Shown here: positions 5,729 to 61,690 of the stretch, one piece after another
Numbering within the stretch: position 1 is the stretch's first letter
How the letters are laid out: each line of letters begins with the position of its first letter
NCBI GenBank assembly: GCA_019750095.1
Contig: JAIEOW010000045.1
Span: 1 to 64,000 of the forward strand
Direction: 5' to 3'
Origin: Phycisphaerales bacterium
Lineage (GTDB): Bacteria; Planctomycetota; Phycisphaerae; Phycisphaerales; UBA1924
DNA: 64,000 nucleotides
Notes under the pieces: model-generated
Told to the model about the DNA's origin: nothing
Database searches by the model: none
Seen by the model: the letters and a program-made list of their open reading frames with translations, nothing else
Made by a program: the position numbers and the translations under genes

Positions 5729-5766
5729 GGGGAGGGATCGTAATCGATTTGCCTGGGTGGGGGAAT

Positions 5767-5792
5767 GAAAAACGCCCCGGTGAGGGGCGTTT
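5767..5792 (-). terminator. Intrinsic terminator downstream of rpsA
   Basis: Minus-strand hairpin ACGCCCC-tcacc-GGGGCGT followed by TTTTT, just after the rpsA stop. Confidence 0.55.
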
Positions 5793-5806
5793 GGGGGTTC
5801 AGCAAA

Positions 5807-5834
5807 GGCACACAGGCGGGACGCCTGTGCCACC
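5807..5834. repeat. REP-like palindromic element GGCACACAGGCG-GGAC-GCCTGTGCCACC (copy 1)
   Basis: Perfect 8-bp stem; a near-identical reverse-complement copy is at 35539-35564. Confidence 0.6.
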
Positions 5835-5851
5835 AAAGGCGGGTAATGGGG

Positions 5852-7294: not shown

Positions 7295-7487
7295 GATGGT
7301 GCGTCGGCGGGGAAGGGCTCGTGTTCGAGTGGTCCGCGCGGCTCCTGAAACGATTGACCGAAGCCCGCGCGAGCGCACCATGCGCCCAGTTCGCGGGCCG
7401 AAGTCGGGGGGACAAGTGTAGTCCACACGCCGGGGTGATGCCCTTGTGCGCACAGATATCCATCCCGGGGATTCTGTCGCAATAGGC

Positions 7488-38704: not shown

Positions 38705-40219
38705 ATGCCGACCCCCTCCCGCCCCGCCCCGACCACCCGAGCCAACGCCCCCCTCACCATGCCCTTCCGCGGCGTGCTCGACATGATCGGCAACACGCCG
38801 ATGCTCGAGCTCTCCAGGCTCGACACCGGGTCTCCCGACATCCGGCTCTTCGGCAAGATGGAGCTGATGAACCCGGCGGGGTCGATCAAAGACCGCATCG
38901 GGCTCGCGATGATCGAGGCCGCCGAGCGCGACGGGCGGCTCAATCCCAACGCCACGCCCACGCCGACGATCATCGAGGCGACCGCGGGCAACACGGGCCT
39001 GGCCCTCGCGCTCGTCGGCAAGCAGCGTGGCTACCACATCAAGTTCGTCATGCCCGACAAGATGTCGCAGGAGAAGATCCAGCACCTGCGGGCGATGGGC
39101 GCCGAGGTGATCCTCACCCGCTCCGACGTCGAGAAGGGCCACCCCGAGTATTACCAGGACATGGCGGCCGCGCTTGCCAAGACCATCCCGAACTCGCTCT
39201 ACGTGAACCAGTTCGGCAACCTCGACAACCCCAAGGCGCACTACGACACCACGGGCCCGGAGATCTGGAAGCAGATGGAGCCCGTCGGCGGCATCGACGC
39301 GTTCGTCTGCGGCGTCGGCTCCGGCGGCACGCTCTCGGGCGTGGGCAAGTTCCTGCGCGAGAAGAACCCCGCGTGCAAGCTGATCCTGGCCGACCCGGCG
39401 GGCAGCATCCTCACGCCGCTGGTGAACGAGGGCAAGGTGGTCAAGCCCGGCTCGTGGCTGGTCGAGGGCATGGGCGAAGACTTTGTGCCCGACATCTGCG
39501 ATCTCAAGCTCGTCAGCGAGGCGATCGCCGTCACCGACGCCGAGGCCTTCTTCGCCGCGCGTGAACTGCTGGCCAAGGAGGGCATCCTCAGCGGCTCCAG
39601 CACCGGGTGCATTCTCTCCGCCGCGCTGACCTATTGCCGCAAGATGGCGGCCCACAAGAAGGTTGGAGGGGGGGGCCCCATGAACGTCGTCACGCTCATC
39701 TGCGACAGCGGGGCCAAGTACCTGTCCAAGATGTTCAACGACTTCTGGATGATCGACAACGGCTTCATCAAGCGGGAAAAGACCGACGACCTCCGCGACC
39801 TCATCGCCCGCCGCCACGACTTCAACGAGGACCACACCCTCCGCGAGACCGACCCGGTGCGCAACGTCATCAAGCGCATGGGCATGTACGGCGTCAGCCA
39901 GATGGTCGTGAAGGACGAGTCCGGCAAGGTCTCGGGCATCGTCGACGAGGGCGACATCCTGCTCGCGGTGAACATCGACGGCGGGGGCCGGGGGGGCGAC
40001 GAGAAACACCCGGGCGAGGGCGGCGCGTTCGACCGCCCCGTGAGCGACTTCATGACCCGCCGCCTCGAGACCATCCGCCCCGAAGCCCCGGTCAGCGCAC
40101 TCATGCCCATCTTCCGCGCCGACCGCGTCGCGATCGTCGTCGACAAGCAGGGCACGTACTTCGGGCTGATCACCAAGTTCGACATGATCAACTACCTGCG
40201 CTCGCAGCTGGTGCGGTGA
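38705..40219 (+). CDS. Cystathionine beta-synthase (PLP-dependent CysK-like domain plus a tandem CBS pair)
   Basis: GNTPMLEL, the lysine motif SIKDRIG and GNTGLALA; C-terminal CBS domains; contains G8 and G7 homopolymer tracts. Confidence 0.85.
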   Translation: MPTPSRPAPTTRANAPLTMPFRGVLDMIGNTPMLELSRLDTGSPDIRLFGKMELMNPAGSIKDRIGLAMIEAAERDGRLNPNATPTPTIIEATAGNTGLALALVGKQRGYHIKFVMPDKMSQEKIQHLRAMGAEVILTRSDVEKGHPEYYQDMAAALAKTIPNSLYVNQFGNLDNPKAHYDTTGPEIWKQMEPVGGIDAFVCGVGSGGTLSGVGKFLREKNPACKLILADPAGSILTPLVNEGKVVKPGSWLVEGMGEDFVPDICDLKLVSEAIAVTDAEAFFAARELLAKEGILSGSSTGCILSAALTYCRKMAAHKKVGGGGPMNVVTLICDSGAKYLSKMFNDFWMIDNGFIKREKTDDLRDLIARRHDFNEDHTLRETDPVRNVIKRMGMYGVSQMVVKDESGKVSGIVDEGDILLAVNIDGGGRGGDEKHPGEGGAFDRPVSDFMTRRLETIRPEAPVSALMPIFRADRVAIVVDKQGTYFGLITKFDMINYLRSQLVR

Positions 40220-40239
40220 GATTGGAACGCGAAGTTCGC

Positions 40240-41040
40240 GAAGTTCTCGAAGGAAGGCCTGAACGCGGAGACGATGCAGGAGGGGCGGAGGGACGCGGAG
40301 AGATGGCTTTGGGTTCGAGGCATTGAGGCAGGGAATCAAGGCAGGAACGCGGAGGAGATGCGGGAGGGGCGGAGGAGCGCGGAGGGATGGCGTTGGGTTT
40401 GAGGCATTGATTCAGGGGATCTAGGCATCAACGCAGAGGAGAGGCAGGAGACGCAGAGGAACGCAGAGAGATGGCCTTGGGTTTGAGGCATTGAGGCGGG
40501 GGATCGAGGCGGGAACGCGGAGGGGATGCGGGAGGGGCGGAGGAGCGCGGAGAGATGGCTTTGGGTTTGAGGCAGTGAGGCGGGGGATGAAGGCATTCAC
40601 GCAGAGGAGAGGCAGGAGACGCGGAGCAACGCAGAGAGATGGCCTTGGATTCAAGCCAAATGCATTGAAGTCATCGATTCCTTGGCTCAAACCAAAACGC
40701 CTCCCTCCGCGTCCCTCCGCCCCTCCCGTCTCGCCTCTGCGTTCCTGCCTTGAACCCAACGCCATCCCTCCGCGTCCCTCCCCCCCTCCTGCATCTCCTC
40801 CGCGTTCCCGCCTTGAACCCAACGCCATCTCTCCGCGTCCCTCCCCCCTCCTGCATCTCCTCCAAGTTCCTGCCTTGAACCCAACGCCATCCCTCCGCGT
40901 CCCTCCGCCCCTCCCGTCTCGCCTCCGCGTTCCTGCCTTGAACCCAACACCATCTCTCCGCGTCCCTCCCCCCCTCCGCGTTCCTGCCTCCCTTCGCGTC
41001 CATCGCGCCCTTCGCGTTTCCATCTCCTCCACCGTTCCAT
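40240..41040. repeat. Palindromic tandem repeat array: about 5 direct copies of an approximately 84-bp unit, then about 5 copies in reverse-complement orientation
   Basis: Units end in GATGGCNTTGGGTTTGAGGCA; the forward block is 40254-40650, the symmetry centre is about 40655-40680, and the inverted block is 40690-41040. Confidence 0.8.
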
Positions 41041-41046
41041 CCCGCA

Positions 41047-41240
41047 CAGGAACAACCGACTCGGGCCACGGAACAGCTCGCCCGGACCTTGGCACCTTTC
41101 ACTCGCGCCCAGCAACGGCTCAACCGTTCCACGCACCGGCTCGGCCGTGCCGAGGCACCGCCCACCCGTTCCGAGGCACGGCTCGATCGTCCCCTGGAAC
41201 ACCTCGACCGTTCCCAGGAACGGCTCTCCCGTTCCCGAGC
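41047..41240. repeat. Tandem array of about 8 copies of a 21-bp unit containing the inverted motif GGAAC-N7-GTTCC, immediately upstream of the 41278 gene
   Basis: Recurring ggctcNNccgttccNaggcac units, e.g. AGGAACGGCTCTCCCGTTCC. Confidence 0.7.
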
Positions 41241-41277
41241 GCTTCAGTGCCCCGCTTGCTGAGCCGATACCCGCGGC

Positions 41278-41970
41278 ATGCCCGACTACATCCCCCGCTC
41301 CGACGCCGAGTACGCCGCGTACATGCAGCACTTTGTGCCCGCGCTGGACTATTGGTGGAGCCGGCAGGGCCTTGATCCCGGCACGCTCGACGAGCTGCTC
41401 TACGCCGCCGGCGACTTTGACGCCGCCTACGCCGCGCACATCGCGCAACAGGCCGCCGCCGAGGGCGCCCGCCACGCCAAAGACGCCGCCCGCGCCCGCC
41501 TGACCGCCGCCGTGCGGCCGCTGGTCAGCTTCGTGCAGAGCTACCCCGCAACGACCGACGCCGCGCGGGCCGAACTGGGCATCACCATCCGCCCCCCAAA
41601 GGGCACGCCCGCCCGCACGCCGTCGTCGCGCCCGCTCGCGCTGGTGGAGAGCGGGCAGCGGCTCACGCACCAACTGCGGCTGGTGGATGAGTCCACGCCG
41701 ACCCGCCGCGCCCGGCCCGCGGGCGTGCTCGGGGCCGAGGTGTGGGTGAAACTCGTCGCCCCCCCCAATGCGGACACCCCCGCGCCGACCGACCCCGCCC
41801 GTGATCCAAGTAGTTTCACGTTCCTGACCATGACCACCCGCCCGAGTTTCCGCGCCGAGTTCAAGGCGGGCGAGGGCGGAAAAACCGCCGTCTACATGGC
41901 CCGCTGGATCAACACACGCGGCGAAAAGGGGCCGTGGTCGGAGATCACGACGGCGACGGTGGCGGCGTAG
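41278..41970 (+). CDS. Hypothetical protein, paralog A of a pair flanking the RM gene
   Basis: 230 aa; shares the N-terminal M-x-DYIP, LGIT, TPTRRARPAGV and C-terminal RW..GE.GPWSE...AT.AA motifs with the 46090 gene; no family recognised. Confidence 0.5.
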   Translation: MPDYIPRSDAEYAAYMQHFVPALDYWWSRQGLDPGTLDELLYAAGDFDAAYAAHIAQQAAAEGARHAKDAARARLTAAVRPLVSFVQSYPATTDAARAELGITIRPPKGTPARTPSSRPLALVESGQRLTHQLRLVDESTPTRRARPAGVLGAEVWVKLVAPPNADTPAPTDPARDPSSFTFLTMTTRPSFRAEFKAGEGGKTAVYMARWINTRGEKGPWSEITTATVAA

Positions 41971-42030
41971 GGCATCGACACGCCGTCCGCAGGACCCGCT
42001 GCGCGGGAAAGACCGGCACCGATGTTTGTC

Positions 42031-42145
42031 GTCTTCGCCCCAACGGGGCGCAGGGATGTAGCCACGGGTGAAGCCCGCGCTTTGCGGGCGCAACCCGTGG
42101 AAAGCGTGTCCCCCGCGCGGGACTGCCCCGGAGGGGCAGAGGGGG
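42031..42145. repeat. Left inverted repeat flanking the RM gene (hairpin-containing)
   Basis: About 85% identical, in reverse complement, to 45780-45868 over about 78 bp; contains the stem CCACGGGT...ACCCGTGG. Confidence 0.7.
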
Positions 42146-42146
42146 C

Positions 42147-45100
42147 TTACTTGAGTGGGATCGTCTTCTTGGCGCAGGCGGCGTAGTTGGCGTTCAAGTC
42201 GTCGGCGAGTTCCAGCAGTGCGGCGATGCGGCGGACGATCTCCGAGACGTAGACCAACTCATCGCCGGTGAGCGGGCGACCGAGGATCGCCTTTTCCCGG
42301 TACGAAAGCCACTTGTTCACGACGGGATAACCGCCGAGCGTCAACGCCCACGCGTCATTGGGCACGTTGCGCCAACCGACGCGCTCGTTGATCCACACGT
42401 CCACCGCGCCTTCGGGATCGGCGTCGTTGGGCGTGACTTTGCCCTCGCGCATCGAGACGCGGCCCTGCTTGTCCACGCTCGCCCAACCGCCGTCCACGAT
42501 CATGTCCTCGTCCGGGTCGATCTGGCCGCCGCCGACCTTGAACGGCACCGCGAGCGAGCGGAGGGCGGCGCGAATCTTGCCCGACGTAACGCCTTCGACG
42601 GCCCGGCCCGGCATAAGCAGGTCCGCGACCAAACGGCCCAGCTTGGCGGAGGTGACGAGCGTCTTGGCTTCGGTCGGCACGGGCACGCGGGGCCAATCGA
42701 CGCGGAGGGCGTCGTGGTTCTGCTGGGCGTAGGCGGGCGCGGCGAGGGCGGCGATGCAGTGAAAGAACACCTCGTCGTTGTGGCTCAGTGCGGCATCGGT
42801 CCAGCCGTGGCCGTCCTTGGTGCGGCCCTTGACACCGTGCGCCTCGCAGATGCGTTCAAGCCACCTCTCTTCCACCCCCGGGCCGATGGATTCGCCCATG
42901 AGCGATTCGTGACGACGCCGCATCGGGAAGTAAGTCGCGTAGGGGTCGAAGAAGTAGTACGAGCCGATGTGCTCGGTGACGACTGGAATCGGGAACTCTT
43001 CGTGCCGGGGCTTCTGCGTACACGCGAGGAAAAGGTTTTCCGGGAAGGCGTTCTCGGCGAACTCGGGACGGCGGCGATGCACGAGCTTCAGCCTGTCCTC
43101 ATCAAACATGTAGCGAGTGTCGAAGGGTTGCCATGCGATAGGCACGACCTTCTTTGGATCGTACTTGAGCTTCTTGGCCTTTGCTTGGGCTCTGACGGAA
43201 GATGCCTCGTATCCCGCTTCGTCGGTCATCAAGTCGGCACAGGCTTCCGCAAGGTCCGCGTCCGACACGGACTTGTCGAAGTACGCCTTCATGCGTTCTT
43301 CCAGCGGTGCGCGGTCCATGTCCACCAGTGCCCGGCCCCGTCCCGGCTGCACGCCCTTGAACGATTCGCCGAGCAAGGCGGGCAAAGTGGGCCACACCAT
43401 CCACTGGGCCGATCGTCGGGTGGGAAGAAGCGACCAACGCCCCTCCAGCGTGGGCGCGGCCTCGCGCGGATTGCCCTCCTTGCGGTCTTTGACCGAAGCC
43501 AGAAGCCGCTCGCGGCGTTTCTCGGCGGACGCGTCGTCGAAATCGCGGAACTCGACGCGGGCCACCGTAGCGGTGCTGGCTTTCTTGTCTCCGGCTCCCT
43601 TCTTGACCATCGTGGCGATGGCGGTACCGATCCGGATACCGGGCGATGTGCCCCGCATGGCGAACACCGTCTCGCTGGCCGCGCCGTCCGGGGCACGCTC
43701 TTTGGCCTTGCGGTCGCCGTGGAGGTTGTCCACGTAGATGGTGTCGAACCCTTGGAGCAAGCGTTCGCGCATGAGGACGTGGGGGATGCCGTTGAGCCAC
43801 GAATAGTTGCTGATGTAGCACACGATGCCGCGCCGCCCCACATCGCCGATGCGCCGCTCGGCCAATCGGAAGAAGCGGATGTAGGGATCATCGAGCGTCT
43901 GCTTGCGGATGCCGAACCGCTCGTTCAGCCCTTCCTTGTACGGTCGGATCAAGTCGCCCTCTTCGTCAAGGGCCACGCCCTTGTTGCCCCGGTACGGCGG
44001 GTTGCCCAGGACCACGAGGATCGGCGCTTCCCGCTTGATCTTGGCGGCGCGGTCCTGCTCGTCTTGCAAGAACCCGAAGGCCAGCGTGCCTTTGGCCCCT
44101 TTGGGCGGCTCCCAACCCGTGAGCGCGTTGGTGAGGTAGACGCTTACCCGCTCATCCTTGCCGAGTTTGCCGCCGAGTCCGCGAAGCAGGATGCCGAGTT
44201 GCAGGTGCGCGACCACGTAGGGGGCGGTCAAAATCTCGAACCCGAAGACGCGCTCGCAGAGGGCTTTCTTCACCTTCGACACGGCGAGCGCGCCGTGCCC
44301 CTGATCGTCGAGCGTGGCGTGGATGCGGCGGGCCACTTCAAGCAGGAACGAGCCGGTACCGACGGCGGGATCAAGCACGAACACGCGGTCATCGGCCAAT
44401 CCGTCCTTGATGCCGAGTTCCGAGCGAAGCAGGTGGTCCACCCGTTCGACCATGTAGCGCACGATCTCCGGGGGCGTGTACCACACGCCCAGTTCTTCGC
44501 GGAGTTCGGGGTCGAACGCTTCAAGGAAGGGCTCGTAGAAGAGCGTGATGGCGTGGTCGGCGTCGAAAGACGCGAAGAACTCGGCGTGATTCACGCGGTT
44601 GAGGCTCGCGGCGGCCCATTCGAGCGTCTCCCGAAGGTCGAGGTCTTTGAGTCGCGTGGGCTTTGCGACTTCGTCAAAGAGGTTGGCGATCAGTGGCAAG
44701 TCCAAGTGCTCGGACGCGCGCCGCCAGTCGAACGCGGGCGGCTTCCTGCCCTTGGGCAGCCCGGCCTTCCAGAGCATCCAAGCCGAGAACAGGCCGTAGA
44801 ACAAGGTCTGGACGAGCGACGAGCGGAAAAACCGCATTCCCTGTTCGTCGGTGAAGGTCAACCCCAGCGTCCGCTCGAAGGCTTCCTGAAGGGGCTTCAA
44901 GTCGTCGATCGAGTGCCGACCGAGCCGGCGCTTGGCCTCGCGGGCGTGGCGGGCCAAGTCCGCCGCCAAGTCCTTGGGCTTGACGATGGGCGAAGGGCGA
45001 GCGAAGACGCCTTCGAGGTAGTCCGTCAGCCCCTGCTCGTGTTCCTCGGCGAGCTTGGCAGGCTTGGCCCTCCAGAAAGCCTCGGATGTCGCGCTCAGGC

Positions 45101-45500
45101 GATAGCGGGTTTCGACTTTGGCCTCGCCCGTCTCGGCATCGCGGGCGACGAACACGAACTCTCGAAAGTTGGTCACCAGCACGAAGCCGTAGCGCTTCCA
45201 ATACTTGGACACTTGGTCCCCGGAGGCGGTGTCATGAATGTTGTCCTTGGTGCCCTTGACCTCAACAACCAGCCGCAGATTCCCCGACTTCTTTTCGAAG
45301 ATGCCAAGGTCCGGCTGGCCCGCGCCCTCCTGCTTCAGCTCCATCGTCGCAAAGAGTTCCGGGTCGAAGTCCTCGCCTATTGCGGTAAGCAAGGCTTCGA
45401 GTTTGCTCTTGTAGGACTGCTCGGCCGTGGCCTTGCCGGTGCCGTGCACATCATGCAGGCCTTCTAAGTATGCAAGGACGGGTGATTTCTTCTTTGACAT
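42147..45500 (-). CDS. Type IIG (MmeI-family / Type IIL) restriction endonuclease fused to an N6-adenine DNA methyltransferase
   Basis: N-terminal PD-(D/E)xK-like region (DLGIFEKK...LVVEVKG ... FVLVTNFREF, compare MmeI YVLVCDFQRF); gamma-class methyltransferase motif I VLDPAVGTGSFLLEV and motif IV LGNPPYRGNKG; 1117 aa. Confidence 0.8.
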   Translation of the reverse strand: MSKKKSPVLAYLEGLHDVHGTGKATAEQSYKSKLEALLTAIGEDFDPELFATMELKQEGAGQPDLGIFEKKSGNLRLVVEVKGTKDNIHDTASGDQVSKYWKRYGFVLVTNFREFVFVARDAETGEAKVETRYRLSATSEAFWRAKPAKLAEEHEQGLTDYLEGVFARPSPIVKPKDLAADLARHAREAKRRLGRHSIDDLKPLQEAFERTLGLTFTDEQGMRFFRSSLVQTLFYGLFSAWMLWKAGLPKGRKPPAFDWRRASEHLDLPLIANLFDEVAKPTRLKDLDLRETLEWAAASLNRVNHAEFFASFDADHAITLFYEPFLEAFDPELREELGVWYTPPEIVRYMVERVDHLLRSELGIKDGLADDRVFVLDPAVGTGSFLLEVARRIHATLDDQGHGALAVSKVKKALCERVFGFEILTAPYVVAHLQLGILLRGLGGKLGKDERVSVYLTNALTGWEPPKGAKGTLAFGFLQDEQDRAAKIKREAPILVVLGNPPYRGNKGVALDEEGDLIRPYKEGLNERFGIRKQTLDDPYIRFFRLAERRIGDVGRRGIVCYISNYSWLNGIPHVLMRERLLQGFDTIYVDNLHGDRKAKERAPDGAASETVFAMRGTSPGIRIGTAIATMVKKGAGDKKASTATVARVEFRDFDDASAEKRRERLLASVKDRKEGNPREAAPTLEGRWSLLPTRRSAQWMVWPTLPALLGESFKGVQPGRGRALVDMDRAPLEERMKAYFDKSVSDADLAEACADLMTDEAGYEASSVRAQAKAKKLKYDPKKVVPIAWQPFDTRYMFDEDRLKLVHRRRPEFAENAFPENLFLACTQKPRHEEFPIPVVTEHIGSYYFFDPYATYFPMRRRHESLMGESIGPGVEERWLERICEAHGVKGRTKDGHGWTDAALSHNDEVFFHCIAALAAPAYAQQNHDALRVDWPRVPVPTEAKTLVTSAKLGRLVADLLMPGRAVEGVTSGKIRAALRSLAVPFKVGGGQIDPDEDMIVDGGWASVDKQGRVSMREGKVTPNDADPEGAVDVWINERVGWRNVPNDAWALTLGGYPVVNKWLSYREKAILGRPLTGDELVYVSEIVRRIAALLELADDLNANYAACAKKTIPLK

Positions 45501-45779
45501 CCTGTCTCCGAAGATTGAGGTTGGTTGGACGGCATTGTACGGTCAGTTCACCGCCAATGCCGGGGCTGCCGCCCCCGGCACCCCCGCTCAAGGCACTCGG
45601 AATGCACGACGATCGCGGCGGGCGGTTCTCTTCCGGGCAGGGAGAGGTGCGGAGAGGGCGGCACGCCCTCTCTGCATCAGCGCGACACAGTGACGGATAG
45701 GTTGGAAACCAGTCCCGGTTGAGCGGGTGTCGGTGGACGGGAGCTTCCTCCGCCCCTGCCGGGGCGGGTCGGGGTGATT

Positions 45780-45868
45780 CACGCTGTCCACGGGTTGCGC
45801 TGCGCTCCACCCGTGGCTACAGCCCGGCGCCCCTCCGGGGCGAAGAGTGAGCGGAGCGGGGCGAAGAG
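45780..45868. repeat. Right inverted repeat flanking the RM gene
   Basis: Reverse complement of 42031-42108; lies about 280 bp upstream of the RM start codon. Confidence 0.7.
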
Positions 45869-46089
45869 GCGCGGCGGTTCATCCTCATATATGTTCCGAC
45901 TCGGTGTGCTCTGTGTCTCTGTGGTGAAAATTCCTGGGGCCGGTGAAGTCGAGCATTTCTCTTGCCGACAAAACCGAAAGTGTCCTCCGCGTGCCGATTG
46001 ACGGCTTGGGTAGCGGCTTGACGCCCCAGCGCAGCGTGTGCAGGGCAGCACGAGCAAGCCGCCGAATCCATTGATGGAGACACTGAATC

Positions 46090-46749
46090 ATGGCTGACTA
46101 CATCCCCGGCCCCGATGCGTCGTTTCAGGCTTGGCAATCCAACTTTGTGACCTACGCCAACGCCAATCTCGCCGCGCTCGGGCTCACCGCGCCGGACATG
46201 GCCCCGATCACGGCCGCGCAGACCGCTTGGGCCACCGCCTTTCCGGCCCACGTCACCGCCGTCAACGCGGCCAAGGCCGCGAAACAGACCAAGGACGAGG
46301 CCCGGGCCGCGTATGTCGCGGTGATCCGGCCGCTCGTGCGCCGGCTGCAGGCGTCCGCCGTGGTGAGCGATGCAGAGAAGGCGTCGCTCGGCATCACCGT
46401 CGCGCAGGCCCCGACGCCCATCGGCGCGCCCACCACGGCCCCCATCTGCTCCATCGAGTGCGGCAACCGCCTCCAGCAGACCCTCCGCTTTGTCGACTCC
46501 GCCACGCCCACACGCAAGGCCAAGCCCGCGGGCGTCATGGGCGTCGAGATCTGGAACAAGGTCGGCACCACGCCCCCCGCTGGCGAGGCCGACCTCCGCT
46601 TCGTCGCCGTGGACACCAACGCGCCGTACGTCATGAACTTTGACTCCGCCGACGGCGGCAAGGTCAACTATGTCTGGATGCGATGGGTCAGCCCCACCGG
46701 CGAGCGCGGGCCGTGGAGCGAGCAGGCCCAGGCGACCATCGCGGCCTAA
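46090..46749 (+). CDS. Hypothetical protein, paralog B of the RM-flanking pair
   Basis: 219 aa; about 35-40% identical to the 41278 gene by manual alignment. Confidence 0.5.
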   Translation: MADYIPGPDASFQAWQSNFVTYANANLAALGLTAPDMAPITAAQTAWATAFPAHVTAVNAAKAAKQTKDEARAAYVAVIRPLVRRLQASAVVSDAEKASLGITVAQAPTPIGAPTTAPICSIECGNRLQQTLRFVDSATPTRKAKPAGVMGVEIWNKVGTTPPAGEADLRFVAVDTNAPYVMNFDSADGGKVNYVWMRWVSPTGERGPWSEQAQATIAA

Positions 46750-46834
46750 CGCCCCGATCATCGACAGCACATGCAGAACCTCCAACGGCCCCGGCACATG
46801 CTGGGGCCGTTGTGCTGCGCGACGGCAGGGGTGA

Positions 46835-47115
46835 TCGTTTCAAGGCTGGGTTTGAACGCGAACGGCGCGAAGGACTCGAAGGAAGGCAGGAACGCGAAGG
46901 GGGGGAGGGAGGTGCGGAGGAACGCGGAGGGAGGCGTGTGGGATCGAGCCAGAGAATCCCGGCCTTGAACCCAGGACCATCCCTCTGCGTTGCTCTGCGC
47001 CTCTTGTCTTTCCTCTGCGTGGATGCCTTGATCCCCCGCCTCGATGCCTCGAACCCAAGGCCATCTCTCCGCGCTTCTCCGCCCCCCTCCGCATCTCTCC
47101 GCGTTCCTGTCTTCC
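46835..47115. repeat. Second, shorter palindromic repeat array of the same 84-bp family (one forward unit, about 2 inverted units)
   Basis: GAAGGCAGGAACGCGAAGGGGGGGAGGGAGGTGCGGAGGAACGCGGAGGGAGGCG, then inverted copies CTTGAACCCAAGGCCATCTCTCCGCGC... Confidence 0.65.
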
Positions 47116-47175
47116 AAAGAGCCCATCGCGCGGTATGCTGCGGCATCGCTCGCGTCCGTCGCCCACATCAGGAGC

Positions 47176-47853
47176 ATGACCATGCCCCGCCTCGGCCCCA
47201 CCTCGCCCGCCGACCATGTTGATCAGCCCGTGCATCCGCCGCTGGACCTGGCCAAGTGGATCCGCACCAACGCCAAGCATCTCAAGCCGCCGGTGAGCAA
47301 CAAGCAGTTGTTTGTGGAGAGCGACGACATGGTCGCCTTTGTCTCCGGCGGGCCCAACACGCGCAACGACTATCACTTGAACCCGACCGAAGAGCTGTTC
47401 TATCAGCTCAAGGGGACGATCGCCGTGCGGATTCGCCCGCTCGACGGCTCGCCGCCGCGGGATGTGGTCATCAAGCAGGGCGAGCTCTTCCTGCTCCCGC
47501 GGTGGGTGCCGCACCGTCCGCAGCGCCCGGCGAACACGCTCGGGCTCATCATCGAGTTTCCGCGGCCCAAGGGCCAGCTTGACGGGCTCCGCTGGTACTG
47601 CCCCAAGTGCGACCATCTCGTCCACGAGGCGCGCTGGCGGCTGAAGAAGATCGACGAAGACCTCAAGATCATCATGGAAGCGTTCTGGGGCGGGCCCGCC
47701 AAACGCCGCACGTGCACCGCCTGCGGCCACGTGATCGAACGCGCGGGCGCGATCGAGCTCAAGGGCGGCAAGGTCAAGGCCACGGCCCGCACATCCGGCA
47801 AACCGCGCGGCGGTGCCAAGCCCGCGTCAACCCGGCCGCGCTCGCGATCCTGA
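47176..47853 (+). CDS. 3-hydroxyanthranilate 3,4-dioxygenase
   Basis: Cupin core NPTEELFYQLKG...GELFLLPRWVPHRPQR; C-terminal rubredoxin-like CPKCDH...CTACGH. Confidence 0.8.
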   Translation: MTMPRLGPTSPADHVDQPVHPPLDLAKWIRTNAKHLKPPVSNKQLFVESDDMVAFVSGGPNTRNDYHLNPTEELFYQLKGTIAVRIRPLDGSPPRDVVIKQGELFLLPRWVPHRPQRPANTLGLIIEFPRPKGQLDGLRWYCPKCDHLVHEARWRLKKIDEDLKIIMEAFWGGPAKRRTCTACGHVIERAGAIELKGGKVKATARTSGKPRGGAKPASTRPRSRS

Positions 47854-55060: not shown

Positions 55061-56065
55061 ATGGGCAACGATCCACCCCATTCCCAGCTCACGCGCGACG
55101 CCGATCGCCCGCTGGGAGCCATGCTCGAACCTCTGCTCATCGCCGCGTGTGATGGGCGTCTGAGCCAGATCAACTGGTTCACGTCCGCATGGCAGGCGGG
55201 AGGTTCGTCGACAGGTCTGGCGACGTTCACCACGCCCGATGGCCAGACCCATGACGTGATCGCCAAGCTGCCCGTCGGGCCCCTGGAACACCGCTGGACG
55301 ACCGCCGTCGGCGGCGTGCGCGAAGATGGCACGCGCGTCTGTGAATCTGTTCCGCGCGTTCTGGCCGCCGGCACAACGCTGGGCAGCTATGACCTGGCCT
55401 GGATCATTGAAGAACGCCTGGAACCTACGCCGCTGAGTGCGCACCTGGATGAGCACGCCCCACGCGAACTGCTGCACGCAGCGGTGCATTGGTACGACGC
55501 GGCGGGCAAGGCCCGGGACATCGCGTCCGCCGAACCACCGGCGCAGAAGGACTGGGAAACACTGATCGCCAAGGGCCGCGAGATCGCCCACAGTCACGGG
55601 ATCGCCGAGGAACAACGCTGGAACGGCGCGATCCGCACCGTCCAGCGCCACCTTGGCGAGCTGATCCGTCGATGGAATGATCGCCCGATCACCACCTGGT
55701 GCCATGGCGACCTGCACTTTGGCAATGCCCTCCGTCGACCCGGCGCCAAGCCGGGTGATGGCTGCGTTCTGATCGACCTTGCGCTGGTCCATCCTGGCCA
55801 TTGGGTTGAGGATGCCGTCTATCTCGAACGCCTGTACTGGGCCAAGCCCGATCTGCTCCGGGGGGTGAAGCCCGTCAGTGAGATGGCCAGAGTCATGCGA
55901 GAACGCCACATGCTCCACGGCGAGGACTACGCGATGCTCGCCAACATCCGAAGGGTGCTCATGGCCGCGAGCGTTCCGGCGTTTCTGAACCACGAAGGGC
56001 ATCCCAAGTACGTTCACGCGGCGTTGGAGATCCTGGAGAAGCTCCTGCCGCAGGTCGTGCACTGA
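55061..56065 (+). CDS. Phosphotransferase-family (APH/choline-kinase-like) protein
   Basis: WCHGDLHFGNAL catalytic motif and a following LIDLALV segment. Confidence 0.5.
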   Translation: MGNDPPHSQLTRDADRPLGAMLEPLLIAACDGRLSQINWFTSAWQAGGSSTGLATFTTPDGQTHDVIAKLPVGPLEHRWTTAVGGVREDGTRVCESVPRVLAAGTTLGSYDLAWIIEERLEPTPLSAHLDEHAPRELLHAAVHWYDAAGKARDIASAEPPAQKDWETLIAKGREIAHSHGIAEEQRWNGAIRTVQRHLGELIRRWNDRPITTWCHGDLHFGNALRRPGAKPGDGCVLIDLALVHPGHWVEDAVYLERLYWAKPDLLRGVKPVSEMARVMRERHMLHGEDYAMLANIRRVLMAASVPAFLNHEGHPKYVHAALEILEKLLPQVVH

Positions 56066-56277
56066 CCATCGCGAAGGGCTGATCTGAGATCAGATTGCCT
56101 GACTTTTCGACTCATTTTGATGCCCCCCCGGCATGACTTTAGGGGTAATCACTGACTACTGAGACTCCTTGCTGGCCGAGATCACTTCCGAGCATGATGG
56201 TGAGCTACTACACTTGCATCGGTTCAAAGAGCGGTCTGGCGGGGGTTTGGAACAGTCATTGGAAGGATGGTGGCGAC

Positions 56278-56463
56278 ATGGAGGCATTTGAACGCATTAA
56301 GAAGATCATCGCCGAGTGCGAGGAAGACCTGCGGAAGGCCGTCGGCGGGAACAAAGCCGCCCAGACGCGCGTGCGCAAGTCGATGCAGGAGATCAAGGAC
56401 GCGGCCCAGCAGGTGCGCGTGGGGATGCTCGAGGCCCGCGAGAGCGAGGTCAAGAAGGATTGA
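56278..56463 (+). CDS. Small helical hypothetical protein (61 aa)
   Basis: AAGGA-like ribosome-binding site upstream of MEAFERIKKIIAECEEDLRKAVGGNKAAQTRVRKSMQEIKDAAQQVR; first gene of an apparent three-gene operon. Confidence 0.35.
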   Translation: MEAFERIKKIIAECEEDLRKAVGGNKAAQTRVRKSMQEIKDAAQQVRVGMLEARESEVKKD

Positions 56464-56490
56464 GTTCCTCCAAAGAGACCTCGTCCAACC

Positions 56491-57033
56491 ATGACCACCG
56501 CACCCGTGGGCAAGCTTGATTCCAGCCAATCCCCGATCGCATCACCGAGCGACGGACTCTGGCCCAAGAACCTGATCTTGGACCTGTCGGCGATCGATCT
56601 GTCGGCGCGCGTCATGGGTCGGGAGGAGTTGGAGGGGTGGCTGCCGCACCGGGGCGAAATGGCGCTTCTGGACGCGATTGTCTGGAACTCACCGGATCAC
56701 AAGCAGGGCGTGGCCATCAAGAAGACTCGGGCGGATGAGTTCTGGGTACCGGGGCACTTTCCGGGTCGCCCGATGATGCCCGGTGTTCTGCAGATCGAAG
56801 CCGCGGCCCAGCTTGCGGTGTATCTGTACAACGCCAGGCGAAAGCAGCAGCTCACCGCGGCATTTACTCGTATCGACGAGTGCTCGTTCCGGAACATGGT
56901 TGTGCCGGGCGACGACGTGTATCTGCTCTGCCAGGAGATCCGGTGGACGCGACGCGGGTTTGAGTGCCACGTCCAAGGCGTGGCGAATCACAAGCTGACC
57001 TTTGACGCCCACATCCAGGGCTTGTCGGTGTGA
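56491..57033 (+). CDS. FabA/FabZ-like 3-hydroxyacyl-ACP dehydratase (hotdog fold)
   Basis: HFPGRPMMPGVLQIEAAAQ active-site region. Confidence 0.7.
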   Translation: MTTAPVGKLDSSQSPIASPSDGLWPKNLILDLSAIDLSARVMGREELEGWLPHRGEMALLDAIVWNSPDHKQGVAIKKTRADEFWVPGHFPGRPMMPGVLQIEAAAQLAVYLYNARRKQQLTAAFTRIDECSFRNMVVPGDDVYLLCQEIRWTRRGFECHVQGVANHKLTFDAHIQGLSV

Positions 57034-58277
57034 GCACTCCCGAATCGGGGCTGATCGCTCTGGATGTCGGCGGAGAACGCTTCGAGCGTCCGCTGAACGG
57101 GGTGATGGATGATGATGCAACTCTTCAACTTCCGCCTCAGGCCGGCGTGCTGGTGCTGGAGGCGAGCGATGGCCGCACCGTGCTTGTGGCGACGACGGCG
57201 AATCTGCGCGACCTGACGCGCCGGCGGCTTGGCCCGATCGAACCGGGGGAACGCTCGGCGAGTGCAGATGTGCGCGACCTGTGCGCGGGCGGACGACTGA
57301 TCGCGATTCGAACCGGCTCGGCGCTGGAGACCGATGCGGTGTATCTGCGGCTGGCGCGAGAGCGGCTGGAGCACGCCGCTCGGATCGTGAGCGAGCGGTG
57401 GCGCGCGTGGTTCGTGCATGTTGATCCGGATGCGGAGTTTCCGGAATGGACGAAGACGAACCTCGTCGGACTCGTGCGCACACGCTCGGCGGGGACTTCT
57501 GTCACAGGACGAATCGATACGGGTGTGTTGCTGGGGCCGATTCCGAATAAGGACGCCGCGGGGCGATTCATCGAGCACGCGATCGATGCGTTTGATCTGT
57601 GTCGATTCCATCACCTGCTCGTTCAGGCTCCGAGCGCAGTGGCGTGCGCGTACAAGGAGATGGGGCGATGTCCGGCACCATGTGATGGCAGCGAGTGGAT
57701 GGCCGCGTATCGGGAACGGACGCGCCGGGCAGTCGCGGCACTCTCTGGGCGGATCGAAGCGAAGGCGGCGGAGTTCGAGGCCGCGCAGAAGTCCGCCGCG
57801 GAACTCCAGGAGTTTGAGCACGCGGCTCAATACAAGCGGATGCTCGAACGGATCAAACCGCTGCGGGCCAAGACCTTTGCCGAGGTCGATCAACTGAGCA
57901 CGTGGCAGCGGTTGCTGGTGCTCCGCGGCGAGGCCAAGGGGAGCGTGCGGATCGGCGTGATGGATCGCGGCAATCTCTGGCGTGTCGGCGACGTCGAAGC
58001 CAAGGACTCGGGCGCGGTGCGGGCGATGTGCGCACTCGCAAGATCGCACGCGGCGCAGTTGCTCAGCACGCCAGTGCAAACGATCGAACAGTCGCGGATC
58101 GACAGCATTGCTTTGGTGTCGCGCTGGCTGCAGATGTCGACGAAGAAACGCGGCGGGGTCGCGATCGCCTTTGGGGATGGGTTTGAGGGCGAGGCGGTGA
58201 AGGCGGCTCGACCTGTCGCAAAGATCGATGATGCAGAGGTTGACGTGGACGCGCAAGAGATTGATGGGCTTGGGTAG
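57030..58277 (+). CDS. UvrC N-terminal-like protein (degenerate GIY-YIG plus UVR-like helix)
   Basis: AGVLVLEASDGRTVLVATTANLRDLTRRRL resembles the GIY-YIG core but lacks the tyrosines; ELQEFEHAAQYKRMLERIKPL resembles the UVR domain. Confidence 0.4.
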   Translation: MSTPESGLIALDVGGERFERPLNGVMDDDATLQLPPQAGVLVLEASDGRTVLVATTANLRDLTRRRLGPIEPGERSASADVRDLCAGGRLIAIRTGSALETDAVYLRLARERLEHAARIVSERWRAWFVHVDPDAEFPEWTKTNLVGLVRTRSAGTSVTGRIDTGVLLGPIPNKDAAGRFIEHAIDAFDLCRFHHLLVQAPSAVACAYKEMGRCPAPCDGSEWMAAYRERTRRAVAALSGRIEAKAAEFEAAQKSAAELQEFEHAAQYKRMLERIKPLRAKTFAEVDQLSTWQRLLVLRGEAKGSVRIGVMDRGNLWRVGDVEAKDSGAVRAMCALARSHAAQLLSTPVQTIEQSRIDSIALVSRWLQMSTKKRGGVAIAFGDGFEGEAVKAARPVAKIDDAEVDVDAQEIDGLG

Positions 58278-58340
58278 ATCGCGCGCGTTGAGAGAAGAGG
58301 CACACGCTGGGGACCAGCGTGCCACACAGATGCACGGGTG

Positions 58341-59169
58341 CTATCGCACGCCGAAGAGTCTTGCGGTGTTGGCGTTGATCTGCTCGTGGAAGCTCTCGAA
58401 CGAGACGCCGCGGAGAGCGGCGAGATTGCGTGCGGTGTCGGCGGCATAGGCCGGCACGCACGGGCGCTTGCCGCGATGAGGCAGCGGCGGGAGGAACGGG
58501 GCGTCGGTCTCGATCATGATGCGATCGGCGGGAACGAGTGCGCACGCGGTGCGGACGTCGGCCGCGCTGGGATAGGTGGCGATGCCTGTGAAGCTGATGC
58601 ACGCGCCGAAGTCGAGAACACGCCGCGCCTCGGCGGGGGTGCCGGTGAAGCAATGAAAGACGAATCGCTCCGCGGGGAGCGTGCTGGACTTGAGGATTGG
58701 CATCAGATCATCGAACGCCTCGCGGCAGTGAATGACGACGGGCAGGCCGGGCTTGCCGATGCCGCCCGGGCCGGCGTGATTGACGCTGATGATGAACGCG
58801 AGTTGCTCTTCGAGCACGCGTAACTGGATGGCTTTTGCCGGCGTGGGATAGTGATTGTCGAGCCCAAGCTCTCCCCATGCGACACACTTGGGGTGACTGG
58901 CAACGGTGCGGAGACTCTCCCAGACATGCTGGGTGCCAGTCTTGCTGCTCGCTCGCGGATCAGCGGTATCTGAGTACAGCGGGTGAACACCAGATGAGCA
59001 CCAGACGCGCTCGTGTGCTTTGGCGATCGCCAGGGCGTCGAGACAGTCCAGCGTGGTGGTGCTGATGGTGATGCATCCCGAGACTCCGGCTCGGCTCGCG
59101 TCATCGAGCGTGGGGCCGATACGATCGATGAAGTCGGGAAACGTCAGATGGCAGTGCGTGTCGATCATG
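58341..59169 (-). CDS. tatD: TatD-family metal-dependent hydrolase
   Basis: MIDTHCHL, GELGLD and VIHCREA motifs; start at the internal Met, because the ORF track over-extends into the divergent neighbour. Confidence 0.85.
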
Positions 59170-59189
59170 CGTGAAGAAGGAGCGGGCGG

Positions 59190-60695
59190 ATGAACGTGCT
59201 CGAACGGCGAATGGTACGGGTGCTGGCCGCGACGCTTGCGATGGTTGTCGCGTTCGGGCTGCCCTCGGGCGTGCTTGCGCAGCAGGAGACCCGCGAGCAG
59301 TGGTACGTGCTGATGATGCAGGACAAGCGGGCCGGGTGGATGCGGACGCTGGAACAGCGGCGCGAGGGCAAGCTGGTGTCCTCTGCAGAGATGGAGATCC
59401 GGATCAAGCGTGATCGGCTGACGGTGCCCATCGGCATCTCGACCGAGTTTGTGGAGACACCGGAGCACGAGCCGGTGAGCATGACGAGCACGATGAAGCT
59501 TGGGCAGTTGCCGCAGGTGACGCGGTACCGCTTTCTGCCCGATGGGGTCGAGGTGGAATCGATCAGCGGTGGCAACAAGCAACAGGCCAAGCGCGATCGA
59601 CCGGCGGGAGAGTGGAGCACGCCGCGAAAGGTGGCTCGGCTCATCGAAGAGGGCATCGCGGCGGGCAAGACCGAGTTCAGCACACGCTCGCTCGATCCGA
59701 GCACGGGCCTGACCCCGGCGACGATGACGATGAAGCTGGTCGAGAAGACCACCCTTGAAGTGATGGGCAAGGTGGTGCCGGCGATCAAGTGGACCACAAC
59801 CACGTCGGCCATCCCCGGCGAGAGCGTGCAATACACCGACGAGAAGGGCGAAGCACTCCGGACGGAGACAAGCATCGGCGGGATGACGATCGTGGTCATC
59901 CGCGCGGATCGGGCACTGGCGATGAGCGGGCTTGAAGCTCCGGAGATTCTCAACGCGTCGATGATCTTGCCGGACAAGCCGATCGACGATGCGAGGAGCC
60001 GAATGACGGGCGTCTTCTTGATTCGTACCACGGCTGACCAGCTCTCGGACTTGCCCACCGTGGGTGCGCAAACCTCCGAACGGGTTGATCAACGGACAGT
60101 TCGCGTCCGCATCGACGCGCTCGGATTGTCGCCAGCGTCGAAAGCGGACATCGACGATCCCAGGTACCGCTCATCGTCAGCGATGATCACGAGCGATGAT
60201 GCTCGGGTGAAACAGGCCGTGCTCGAAGCGCTCAAGGGAAGGCAGCAGTCTCAGAAAGTGGAGCAAGCGATGCTACTGCGGACCTTTGTGGGCAGGTACA
60301 TCAGCAAGAAGACGATGGATGTCGGGTTCGCAACCGCCGCCGAAGTCGCGCAGACACGTCAAGGGGATTGCACCGAACATGGCGTGCTCCTTGCCGCGAT
60401 GCTGCGAGCCGCGGGCATTCCCTCTCGCGTGGTGAGCGGATTGATCTATGTCGATGGCATCAAAGACGGCAAGGGCGCGTTCGGATATCACATGTGGGCG
60501 CAGGCTCTGGTCGATGTGGGTGGAAAGCCGGTGTGGATGGATCTTGACCCGACCTTGGGCGTGGTCAAACGAACCGACGCCACGCACATCACTTTGCAGA
60601 CGCTGGCCATGGCCGACGGCGAGACGATCAACGCGCTGGTGGACATCGTGCCGACGATGGGCAAGCTGAGCATCACGGTGGAAGGCGTGGAATGA
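59190..60695 (+). CDS. Secreted transglutaminase-like cysteine protease domain protein
   Basis: Signal peptide; Cys-His-Asp core QGDCTEHGVLLAAMLRAAGIPSRVVSG...GYHMWAQALVD...MDLD. Confidence 0.75.
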   Translation: MNVLERRMVRVLAATLAMVVAFGLPSGVLAQQETREQWYVLMMQDKRAGWMRTLEQRREGKLVSSAEMEIRIKRDRLTVPIGISTEFVETPEHEPVSMTSTMKLGQLPQVTRYRFLPDGVEVESISGGNKQQAKRDRPAGEWSTPRKVARLIEEGIAAGKTEFSTRSLDPSTGLTPATMTMKLVEKTTLEVMGKVVPAIKWTTTTSAIPGESVQYTDEKGEALRTETSIGGMTIVVIRADRALAMSGLEAPEILNASMILPDKPIDDARSRMTGVFLIRTTADQLSDLPTVGAQTSERVDQRTVRVRIDALGLSPASKADIDDPRYRSSSAMITSDDARVKQAVLEALKGRQQSQKVEQAMLLRTFVGRYISKKTMDVGFATAAEVAQTRQGDCTEHGVLLAAMLRAAGIPSRVVSGLIYVDGIKDGKGAFGYHMWAQALVDVGGKPVWMDLDPTLGVVKRTDATHITLQTLAMADGETINALVDIVPTMGKLSITVEGVE

Positions 60696-61687
60696 GCGAA
60701 TACGACGCAGCTTCACCGGGCGGGGACGTTGTGCCGGGGGATCTGCCGCGCTTGCCGATGAGGCCGCTCGATGGACACAAGGGTGTGTTTGGTAAAGTGG
60801 CGGTCGTCGGCGGGTGCGCAGAGGGCGCGGTGCGGATGGTGGGTGCCCCCGCGCTCGCGGCGACCGCCGCGTTGCGATCAGGGTGCGGGCTGGCGCGGAT
60901 CGTCGCGCCTTCGGCGATCATCGGCGAGGTGCTGGCGATATGTCCGAGCGCAACGGGGATCGCTCTGGCAAGTGAGGCGCTGACGGGCGTCGTGATTCCG
61001 CACGATGCCGCCGAGGCACTCGACGGCGTGATCGAGAGTTGTGACGCGCTGGTGATCGGGCCCGGCATGGGTCAGAGTCTGGCGACCCAGACGCTCGCGC
61101 TTCGCGCCGTGCAGCAGGAGCGTGTGCCGGTGGTGGTGGATGCCGACGCGATCAACGCACTTGCGGCGATTCCGGAGCTGATCCGCGATCTGCGCGGCGC
61201 GTGCGTGCTGACGCCGCACCCCGGAGAGTTCAGGCGACTCTGCGCGGGACTTGGATTGAAGAATGATCTTGGGCTGAGCCAATCTCGTTTGAGCGCGTGC
61301 GAGCAGATGGCCCAACGGCTGGGGTGCATCATCGTGCTCAAGGGTGCCGGCACCGTGGTCTCTGACGGCTTGCGCACGTGGACCTGCGGCACGGGGCATC
61401 CGTGCATGGCGACGGCGGGCACCGGCGATGTGCTTGCTGGGCTGCTGGGGGGCATCATCGCGCAGGCGTGTGCGACGGTGGATCAGATGCAGATGCGATC
61501 ACGGGTGCCGCAGATGCCCAGGGACCCTGCGCGACCGTTCGATCTGTACGACGCGGCGCGGATGAGCGTGTGGGTGCATGGCCGCGCGGGCGAGCTGTGG
61601 GCGGACCATCGCGGAGCCGAGGCGGGGTTGCTCGCGATGGAGCTTGCGGAGCTTCTGCCGCAGGCGATGCAGATGGTGCGCACGTAG
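60692..61687 (+). CDS. ADP-dependent (S)-NAD(P)H-hydrate dehydratase (YjeF C-terminal domain family)
   Basis: HKGVFGKVAVVGG, VVVDADAIN, LTPHPGEF and ATAGTGDVLAGLLGG. Confidence 0.8.
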   Translation: MSEYDAASPGGDVVPGDLPRLPMRPLDGHKGVFGKVAVVGGCAEGAVRMVGAPALAATAALRSGCGLARIVAPSAIIGEVLAICPSATGIALASEALTGVVIPHDAAEALDGVIESCDALVIGPGMGQSLATQTLALRAVQQERVPVVVDADAINALAAIPELIRDLRGACVLTPHPGEFRRLCAGLGLKNDLGLSQSRLSACEQMAQRLGCIIVLKGAGTVVSDGLRTWTCGTGHPCMATAGTGDVLAGLLGGIIAQACATVDQMQMRSRVPQMPRDPARPFDLYDAARMSVWVHGRAGELWADHRGAEAGLLAMELAELLPQAMQMVRT

Positions 61688-61690
61688 CGG

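Follow-up and report, generated by a model that had tools for sequence, protein, structure and literature searches.

Why a restriction-modification (RM) gene should lie between two genes that are homologous to each other is the question raised by one locus in a stretch of 64,000 nucleotides, hereafter the window, from an uncultured member of the Phycisphaerales (Planctomycetota; NCBI GenBank assembly GCA_019750095.1, contig JAIEOW010000045.1, positions 1 to 64,000). An earlier note, made from this DNA alone, had remarked on the arrangement and offered two explanations for it, namely insertion of the RM gene with a long target duplication, or a defence module in which the flanking proteins are functional partners of the enzyme. 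The comparisons reported here favour a different answer, to which we would assign a probability of roughly 0.6: the locus is one copy of a multi-copy, recombination-driven variable-cargo hotspot of uncultured Phycisphaerales, the RM enzyme is its current cargo, and the paralogs are neither insertion scars nor RM-specific partners. This reading draws on the conservation of the gene pair, the diversity of the cargo and its enrichment in defence genes, the geometry of repeat elements around the cargo, 3'-end remnants of the flanking genes, and one mosaic block at a junction. The three genes, with the coordinates and the convergent and divergent orientations first proposed for them, were recovered by open reading frame (ORF) calls:

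41278 to 41970, plus strand: p230-type paralog, the upstream bracket, 230 amino acids, with a helical N-terminal half and an FN3-like C-terminal half
42147 to 45500, minus strand: Type IIG/IIL RM gene encoding a single polypeptide of 1117 amino acids, taken here as the cargo of this hotspot copy
46090 to 46749, plus strand: p219-type paralog, the downstream bracket, 219 amino acids, the most conserved family member

The RM gene is thus convergent to p230 and divergent from p219, and all three genes have a coding-type GC content at third codon positions (GC3), at 0.90 for p230, 0.84 for the RM gene and 0.91 for p219. The homology of the two flanking proteins extends over their full length (36% identity, E 1e-46 by BLASTP), and the motifs by which it had been recognised, MxDYIP, LGIT, TPTR(R/K)A(R/K)PAGV, GE(K/R)GPWSE and AT(V/I)AA, were all found, most of them invariant in 47 family members. 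An alignment of the family shows a clean split between p219-type and p230-type clades, with median identities of 77% within p219, 44% within p230 and 37% across the clades. More than 400 relatives of p219 were retrieved, the best 120 being 77-94% identical and nearly all 219 amino acids long; p230-type orthologues are 57-74% identical and mostly 227 amino acids long, p230 itself being 100% identical to K2W85_04875, a Phycisphaerales protein from an NCBI metagenome-assembled genome (MAG). The named sources of both types are all Phycisphaerales or Planctomycetota. Judged by their sequences, p230 and p219 are true paralogs within an unannotated family and represent separate, old orthologous lineages across the Phycisphaerales. 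The impression that the flanking proteins belong to no recognised family also held, as p230, p219 and the 47 family members gave no credible match in Pfam, NCBIfam, PADLOC or PHROG, and profile searches of the PDB with the paralogs gave no credible solved structure. When a family profile was searched against 1.84 billion cluster representatives (clusters at 50% identity), 6034 family clusters reached E<=1e-3 and 605 reached E<=1e-30, and a look-up of the cluster members of remote family representatives returned zero names. The family is encoded by 5 of 2.9 million viral contigs and is therefore atypical for phage genes. The fold of the paralogs consists of an N-terminal helical hairpin and a C-terminal FN3 domain. 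The possibility that they act as DNA mimics was rejected, as the proteins are not acidic (isoelectric points of 7.7 for p230 and 8.9 for p219). Two features of the termini may be recorded here: the C-terminus reads A-T-(V/I)-A-A in 47 of 47 aligned family proteins (window 41956-41970 and 46735-46749), and P6 and D9 of the N-terminal M-x-x-Y-(I/L/M)-P-x-x-D are invariant in the same 47. The terminal Ala-Ala presumably resembles ssrA-type degradation tags.

A scan with one genome per GTDB species yielded 79 family loci. A full-length p230-type gene was found upstream of p219, on the same strand and 1.4-9.2 kb away, at 23 distinct loci besides the window, and the same pair arrangement occurs in two further loci, L089 and L173 (comparison loci are cited by their L numbers). 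As it recurs to this extent, the pair arrangement is beyond chance. The cargo between the pair differs in every species-level genome across the 23 other loci, L089 and L173, so that the earlier suspicion of a meaningful pattern was sound insofar as the pair marks a recurrent variable-cargo hotspot, but not for the reasons then given. Many genomes hold 2-3 pair loci. In four of five comparable genomes the p219 copies within a genome are 68-85% identical, compared with 82-96% for the closest match between genomes, while in the fifth the relation is reversed (95% within versus 91% between); because copies within a genome are less alike than the best matches between genomes, several p219 lineages are taken to be old. 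The locus closest to the window in content is L089, where an RM gene 74% identical to that of the window occupies the same position relative to p230 and p219, in the internal order p230 / HNH-AP2 / RM / p219. Its outer flanks (RecG, PolX) are wholly different from those of the window (a CBS-domain gene and a dioxygenase gene), and the block of RM homology common to both, window positions 41996-45612, leaves the coding bodies of both paralogs outside. Syntenic loci or empty sites, sought with the window flanks at the DNA and protein levels, were not found, nor did the CBS-domain protein or p219 give any record when looked up as exact proteins.

These data bear directly on the proposal that insertion of the RM gene duplicated a long target, whose two copies have since diverged into the paralogs, a proposal to which the position of the gene between two homologous, co-oriented genes lends some appeal. 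RM insertion with long, variable target duplication is known (PMC2853133), and the long target duplications of Furuta et al. 2010 are near-identical direct repeats of more than 30 bp for which a related genome holds a single copy (PMC2853133). Here, however, the paralogs are only 55% identical in nucleotides and 36% in amino acids, their longest stretch of identity being 12 nt, the two lineages are paired in dozens of genomes with other cargo, this RM gene being absent from nearly all other pair loci, and the homology block held in common with L089 stops short of both genes. Relatives with a single undisrupted paralog, which the earlier note had proposed to look for, were not found; related genomes carry both as a pair, with other cargo, at the 23 loci described above. 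Target duplication is thus essentially contradicted and can be given hardly any credence.

The content of the slot was assessed from 138 interior genes, 58 in clean pairs and 80 in family arrays. In clean pairs, the RM cargo comprises N6_Mtase, Eco57I, N6_N4 and C5 methylases, HaeII, BsuBI/PstI and EcoRII nucleases, and Vsr, and the other defence-type cargo comprises AAA_15/21 ATPases (OLD, Gabija, AriA and AbiL models), DUF3226, a Schlafen-like helicase with DUF7687, and SUKH. The clean pairs also contain, as selfish or mobility genes, HNH_3 with AP2 and Y1_Tnp, and, as non-defence genes, AcrB/HlyD (efflux), GT20/trehalase and a P-type ATPase. The family arrays add D12 methylases, XamI, Bpu10I, HepT/MNT, ThsB-TIR and HNH_2. 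Y1_Tnp genes account for 7 of the 138 interior genes, four of them from family arrays. By comparison, the 108 nearest genes outside the arrays are housekeeping genes (histidine kinases, GroEL, Clp, MraW, DHQ synthase, ATP synthase) and include one DNA methylase, so that the cargo is enriched in defence and selfish genes relative to its surroundings. Cargo genes occur in either orientation, and REP (repetitive extragenic palindromic) or terminator-like hairpins separate them from the paralogs. No integrase family was present among the 25 commonest of 58 and of 48 cargo families, although a rare integrase could be missed in this way. An integron was considered and rejected, given cargo in both orientations, a boundary formed by a gene 3' end that is not attC-like, and the lack of an integrase among the listed families. 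In addition, the cargo of L173-L180 consists of genes at 5732-6304 and 6548-7612, encoding proteins of 190 and 354 amino acids with no Pfam family, which are a candidate for an unknown defence pair. A cargo gene common to L007 and L042 gave no junction information, as its homology stops at the coding region.

It could be argued from this content that the paralogs are themselves defence components (sensor, anti-restriction or specificity proteins) that work with whichever effector lies between them. The pair constantly co-occurs with defence-type cargo, the 77-94% identity of p219 reflects strong purifying selection, and FN3 domains are common among phage receptor-binding and tail proteins. However, the cargo of different genomes is mechanistically unrelated, with efflux pumps, trehalose enzymes (GT20/trehalase) and a P-type ATPase among it, no PADLOC defence model matches the paralogs, and the cargo lies in either orientation with hairpins between it and the paralogs. 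Further, the RM family is widespread; a close homologue in L092 (81%) adjoins RmuC, with no gene of about 220 amino acids called upstream and a contig that ends just past the RM gene. The partnership suggested in the earlier note was therefore not borne out, and we regard it as unlikely.

If the cargo is exchanged, the DNA at its junctions with the paralogs should be considered next, and the following features were delineated there:

41878 to 42147, plus strand: junction block, comprising the final ~90 nt of p230 and the REP-like element with a 60-nt spacer between them, with sharp homology edges
42032 to 42142, plus strand: REP-like element made up of three GC-rich hairpins, its end lying 5 nt from the RM stop codon (DNA fold -36.8 kcal/mol, z -2.7)
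45540 to 46089, plus strand: non-coding region upstream of p219, with invariant GC hairpins, the inverted REP-like element, a CTCTGTG-rich block and a TTGACGG block
45747 to 45846, minus strand: inverted copy of the REP-like element, 247 nt upstream of the RM start codon (DNA fold z -3.3)
46750 to 46835, plus strand: terminator-like hairpin downstream of p219, ACGGCCCC...GGGGCCGT, at the right edge of DNA-level conservation

The junction block is 93-100% identical per 30-nt window to a segment of L061 (~8250-8521), or ~96% over 270 nt, whereas the p230 gene bodies of the window and L061 have only ~55-70% nucleotide identity and the DNA past 42147 is unrelated. The right edge of the block coincides with the RM stop codon, that is, with the cargo junction. 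The block is direct evidence that recombination or transfer has occurred recently, at least once, with the junction as its boundary. On the other side of the cargo, the DNA preceding p219 matches its counterparts in L054, L019, L010, L077, L052 and L048 at 71-80% identity over 400-550 nt. Its indels are not multiples of 3 and RNAalifold returned mostly invariant pairs, with a covariation term of +2.7, so that it is to be read as non-coding DNA, and a global RNA fold is without covariation support. Within it, the CTCTGTG-rich block GTTCCGnCTCTGTGTGCTCTGTGTCTCTGTGGTGAAAAT (window 45880-45915) is invariant and the block TTGACGGCTTGGGTAGCGG (window 46009-46028) is conserved upstream of p219 in seven loci, and both may be promoter or regulatory sequence. 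Scans for sigma-70 promoters and terminators gave nothing over the shuffled background. The DNA past the p219 stop codon is likewise conserved, at 73-85% identity over ~65-85 nt, in L005, L022, L039, L044, L013, L042, L059, L017, L043 and L038. Overall, DNA-level conservation begins at the p230 start codon and ends ~85 nt past the p219 stop, with none upstream of p230.

A second line of evidence for events at the junction comes from partial copies of the 3' ends of the family genes. Probing with the last 60 nt of p230 and p219 recovered 60 such copies in the loci, some cut by contig ends, and 59 of the 60 are co-oriented with p219. They stop at the stop codon, their 5' edges are scattered from ~-30 to beyond -200 nt, and in many the sequence has decayed upstream of the final 60-75 nt; in L043, L015 and L063, copies and single foreign genes follow one another in turn. 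Integration that replaces the 3' end of its target gene is familiar from tRNA-targeting islands and from e14 and phage 21 in icd. The likeness to such integration, and to RM target duplication, lies in the order of intact family genes followed by co-oriented copies of their own 3' ends with foreign genes between. The differences from 3'-end integration are that no integrase is seen in the cassettes, that the variable 5' edges point to no single crossover point, and that the window itself holds no such remnant between p230 and p219. An HTH/HNH_3/AP2 gene of ~700 codons, whose products are 56-66% identical, lies directly 3' of a p230-type gene on the same strand in four loci (L089 9510-11627; L051 3428-5584; L014 4289-6382; L016 5192-7327). 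In two of the four, a p230 3' remnant follows it, and the arrangement is as would be expected if such a nuclease gene had inserted at the end of the p230 gene. The HNH-AP2 protein is thus a candidate site-specific selfish nuclease.

The same remnants could be viewed in another way, as silent gene-conversion cassettes comparable to pilE/pilS that vary the C-terminus of the family proteins, with the defence genes as bystanders, and co-oriented partial 3' copies downstream of full-length genes at many loci would fit such a scheme. However, the segment that is copied belongs to the better conserved portions of the protein and contains many invariant residues, stop codons or frameshifts lie upstream of the last 60 nt in many copies, and no signal peptide is visible in the p230 and p219 sequences. 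These points essentially contradict a cassette function, which we consider very unlikely.

The REP-like elements are the most regular component of the junctions. Each is ~110 nt long, the inverted copy was recognised by inverted repeats I1 and I4, and the two copies are 72% identical over 114 nt; no others occur in the 64 kb, where the two stand as an inverted pair around the RM gene. Across the loci, 17 copies lie within pair intervals (96 kb) versus 2 outside (366 kb). In eight related loci an inverted REP pair flanks a gene for a 150-amino-acid IS200-like Y1 transposase, always on the strand opposite to the family genes, and in a metagenome scan inverted REP elements were present at 28 of 30 loci of the same Y1 clade. 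In the window the RM gene stands in place of the Y1 gene. The resemblance to REPtrons, in which a RAYT/IS200-like Y1 transposase gene is accompanied by inverted REPs, is therefore close where the Y1 gene is present, at the eight loci and the 28 metagenomic ones, and the window holds the same inverted pair. The window pair differs in that it encloses an RM gene and no Y1 gene, and hotspot REP elements differ from those of REPtrons in being confined to the hotspots instead of dispersed. The Y1/REP unit is best described as independent of the hotspot and frequently resident in it.

Where the modules lie in their genomes raises the alternative that the p230...p219 unit is itself mobile, its ends encoding the paralogs, and moves as a block between sites and genomes. 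Almost no outer flanking genes are common to different loci, and the modules sit among housekeeping genes in non-syntenic positions; L089 and the window are alike inside and have no common outer flanks; 2-3 modules occur per genome and many family matches sit at contig ends; and the DNA-level conservation is confined to the span from the p230 start to ~85 nt past the p219 stop. In the window, moreover, the same palindromic tandem-repeat arrays bracket the module on both sides, at 40220-41030 on the left and 46850-47135 on the right. Nevertheless, terminal inverted or direct repeats bracketing the module are lacking in 21 of 23 testable loci, the window and L008 being the exceptions, a transposase or integrase is not a consistent feature of the interior, the age of the p219 copies within four of the five comparable genomes indicates that they are not recent products of transposition, and the helix-plus-FN3 fold of the paralogs carries no catalytic signature. 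A mobile unit is accordingly possible but doubtful.

As to the arrays themselves, the left one contains ~5 units of 84 nt followed by ~5 reverse-complement units, with a spacing of 63 nt, and the right one is a shorter (+)/(-) pair of the same palindromic unit, which occurs nowhere else in the window or in the fetched loci; an analogous bracket was seen only in L008. Rfam matches over 40000-47500 were only spurious, of miRNA type, and are artefacts of the palindromic arrays. Tandem arrays with a 42-nt period were also found near p230-type genes, just upstream of the gene in L016 (4146-4329) and L018 (6726-6900) and beside an inverted copy in L034 (8425-8531). The periods of 42, 84 and 63 nt are all multiples of 21 nt, and the array sequences are mutually unrelated. 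At the scale of the whole window, the first ~19 kb have a strongly positive GC skew (up to +0.35), which drops to slightly negative or near-zero values as far as ~55 kb and is positive again over 56000-64000, a pattern that probably reflects gene-strand blocks.

With respect to the cargo of the window, the RM protein has a 100% identical counterpart among NCBI Phycisphaerales MAG proteins, and the anatomy originally read from its sequence was confirmed: a PD...ExK nuclease motif (QPDLG at residue 62, with PD at 63-64, and EVK at 80-82), a methyltransferase with motif I DPAVGTGSFL at 377 and motif IV NPPY at 500, and a C-terminal recognition region, matched by Type_ISP_C over residues 715-1071 (5.5e-34, 118 bits). 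Nuclease, methyltransferase and specificity region are thus fused in one polypeptide, as in Type IIG enzymes, and two PADLOC Type IIG models matched it, REase_MTase_IIG PDLC03610 at 2.9e-96 and PDLC03631 at 1.1e-73, the latter over the full length (residues 21-1077). In Pfam, N6_Mtase matched at 5.6e-9. Assignment to the MmeI family, as first proposed, was not upheld, with MmeI_N at 18.2 bits and MmeI_Mtase at 15.7 bits, both under the Pfam gathering score of 27 bits, and zero matches to MmeI_TRD and MmeI_C. A genuine MmeI enzyme is the cargo of another hotspot copy (MmeI_Mtase 7.6e-89, MmeI_TRD 1.6e-74). A PDB sequence search returned four sequences, namely 7lo5, LlaBIII, LlaGI and a Type I methyltransferase subunit, with no chain named MmeI among them. 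The best solved homologue is 7lo5 (E 4.6e-31, residues 316-646), named in the PDB only as an adenine-specific DNA methyltransferase, which we take to be the Type IIL enzyme DrdV. With 7lo5 and other Type IIL enzymes, and with MmeI, the RM protein has in common a single chain that carries a PD-ExK nuclease at its N-terminus, a gamma-class N6-adenine methyltransferase and, at its C-terminus, a specificity region; it differs from MmeI in its sub-threshold MmeI_N and MmeI_Mtase scores, in the missing MmeI_TRD and MmeI_C, and in having a Type_ISP_C C-terminus instead. The Type ISP enzymes LlaGI and LlaBIII (4xqk, 8.9e-23; 5ffj, 1.9e-21) likewise combine a methyltransferase with a C-terminal Type_ISP_C specificity domain. 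However, the alignments are restricted to their methyltransferase regions, and the RM protein is ~450 amino acids shorter and is without the helicase-like superfamily 2 (SF2) ATPase motor that lies between nuclease and methyltransferase in Type ISP enzymes, no helicase domain being found in it by Pfam. At least 8000 homologues were retrieved at E<=1e-20, of which the best 120 are mostly ~1100 amino acids long with source names from several phyla, and close relatives in NCBI bear the names 'N-6 DNA methylase' or 'type ISP restriction/modification enzyme'. On this evidence the protein appears to be an ordinary, common single-chain Type IIG/IIL enzyme of a kind already known, MmeI-like in architecture and outside the MmeI family by Pfam criteria. 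By analogy with 7lo5 and other Type IIL enzymes, its C-terminal domain would bind an asymmetric site, its NPPY methyltransferase would methylate an adenine within that site, and its N-terminal PD-ExK nuclease would cut unmodified DNA a fixed distance away. Comparison of the RM gene with its L089 orthologue (window 42147-45612, L089 5889-9505) gave 85% identity for the N-terminal and methyltransferase part and just 72% for the C-terminal specificity part, which suggests that the target-recognition domain may be diverging faster or being swapped.

Taken as a whole, the comparisons allow a model of the hotspot to be outlined. The co-oriented paralogs, p230 upstream and p219 downstream, bracket a slot of 1.4-9 kb whose cargo varies between genomes and consists mostly of anti-phage or selfish genes. 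Recombination at the conserved junctions is the most likely route of cargo turnover, the left junction being formed by the p230 3' end with its three-hairpin REP and the right junction by the ~550 nt of hairpin-rich DNA that precede p219. Help probably comes from selfish elements directed at these junctions, namely the HNH-AP2 endonuclease gene and the IS200-like Y1 transposase with its inverted REPs. We infer both the recombination mechanism and whatever role the paralogs may have in it. A more specific and more speculative version, which we put forward only tentatively, is that the 3' end of the p230/p219 family together with the REP hairpins could constitute the dedicated attachment site of an undescribed cassette-accretion platform of the Phycisphaerales. 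Single-gene defence cassettes would then be captured and shuffled by a trans-acting nuclease or recombinase, for which the HNH-AP2 protein and the Y1 transposase are candidates, every event would leave behind a co-oriented copy of the gene 3' end, and the paralogs would be kept either as carriers of the site or as actors in the process.

The hotspot model has precedents. In minimal mobile elements, recombination in conserved flanks is the accepted model of exchange. Such elements are known from Neisseria (Saunders and Snyder 2002, as cited in PMC1538595), and, according to the abstracts concerned, conserved genes flank the core defence hotspots of P. aeruginosa (PMC10250203) and those of E. 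coli (PMC10121019) and of P2/P4 (PMC9122126). The locus described here is similar in that conserved flanks enclose differing whole-gene cassettes rich in RM and defence genes. Compared with what these abstracts describe, however, it differs in that the flanks are mutually paralogous, that 2-3 non-syntenic copies are present per genome, that co-oriented 3' remnants of the flank genes accumulate, and that REP-like hairpin elements are confined to the loci.

Several points weigh against the hotspot model. Nearly all comparison loci are MAG contigs, and the cargo genes were called by an in-house, GC3-based ORF picker and scanned with Pfam and PADLOC. No empty slot and no strain-level polymorphism of the cargo were seen, and in one species (P0016; L173-L180) identical cargo was present in eight samples from different studies; the constancy of the cargo in this species implies that turnover is slow and visible between species and not between strains, and exchange was not directly observed. 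No recombinase is consistently present in the loci. Family genes are nearby in only 3 of 30 metagenomic Y1 loci, the other 27 being without them, so that the Y1/REP unit may be a visitor rather than a driver of the hotspot, and an obligate link of the Y1 transposase to the family was dropped on the same count. Nor is the 3' end uniformly the most conserved part of p230-type genes in an averaged profile; a general homogenisation of p230 3' ends is not claimed, as the profile does not show hyper-conservation. Finally, there is the direct defence role of the paralogs, improbable as it was judged above.

The value of the locus thus lies in its setting, the RM enzyme being routine. A conserved marker pair points to variable, defence-rich cargo in a phylum whose defence systems are almost unexplored, and p219 is of a type easily found, being 77-94% identical across the order, so that the pair could serve to locate new anti-phage genes in metagenomes of Planctomycetota, where many cargo genes have no known family. 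The paralogs also define a large unannotated family, of ~6000 clusters at 50% identity, for which no Pfam family exists. If the junction of gene 3' end and REP hairpins is truly a recombination site, the hotspot would represent a new kind of cassette-capture locus.

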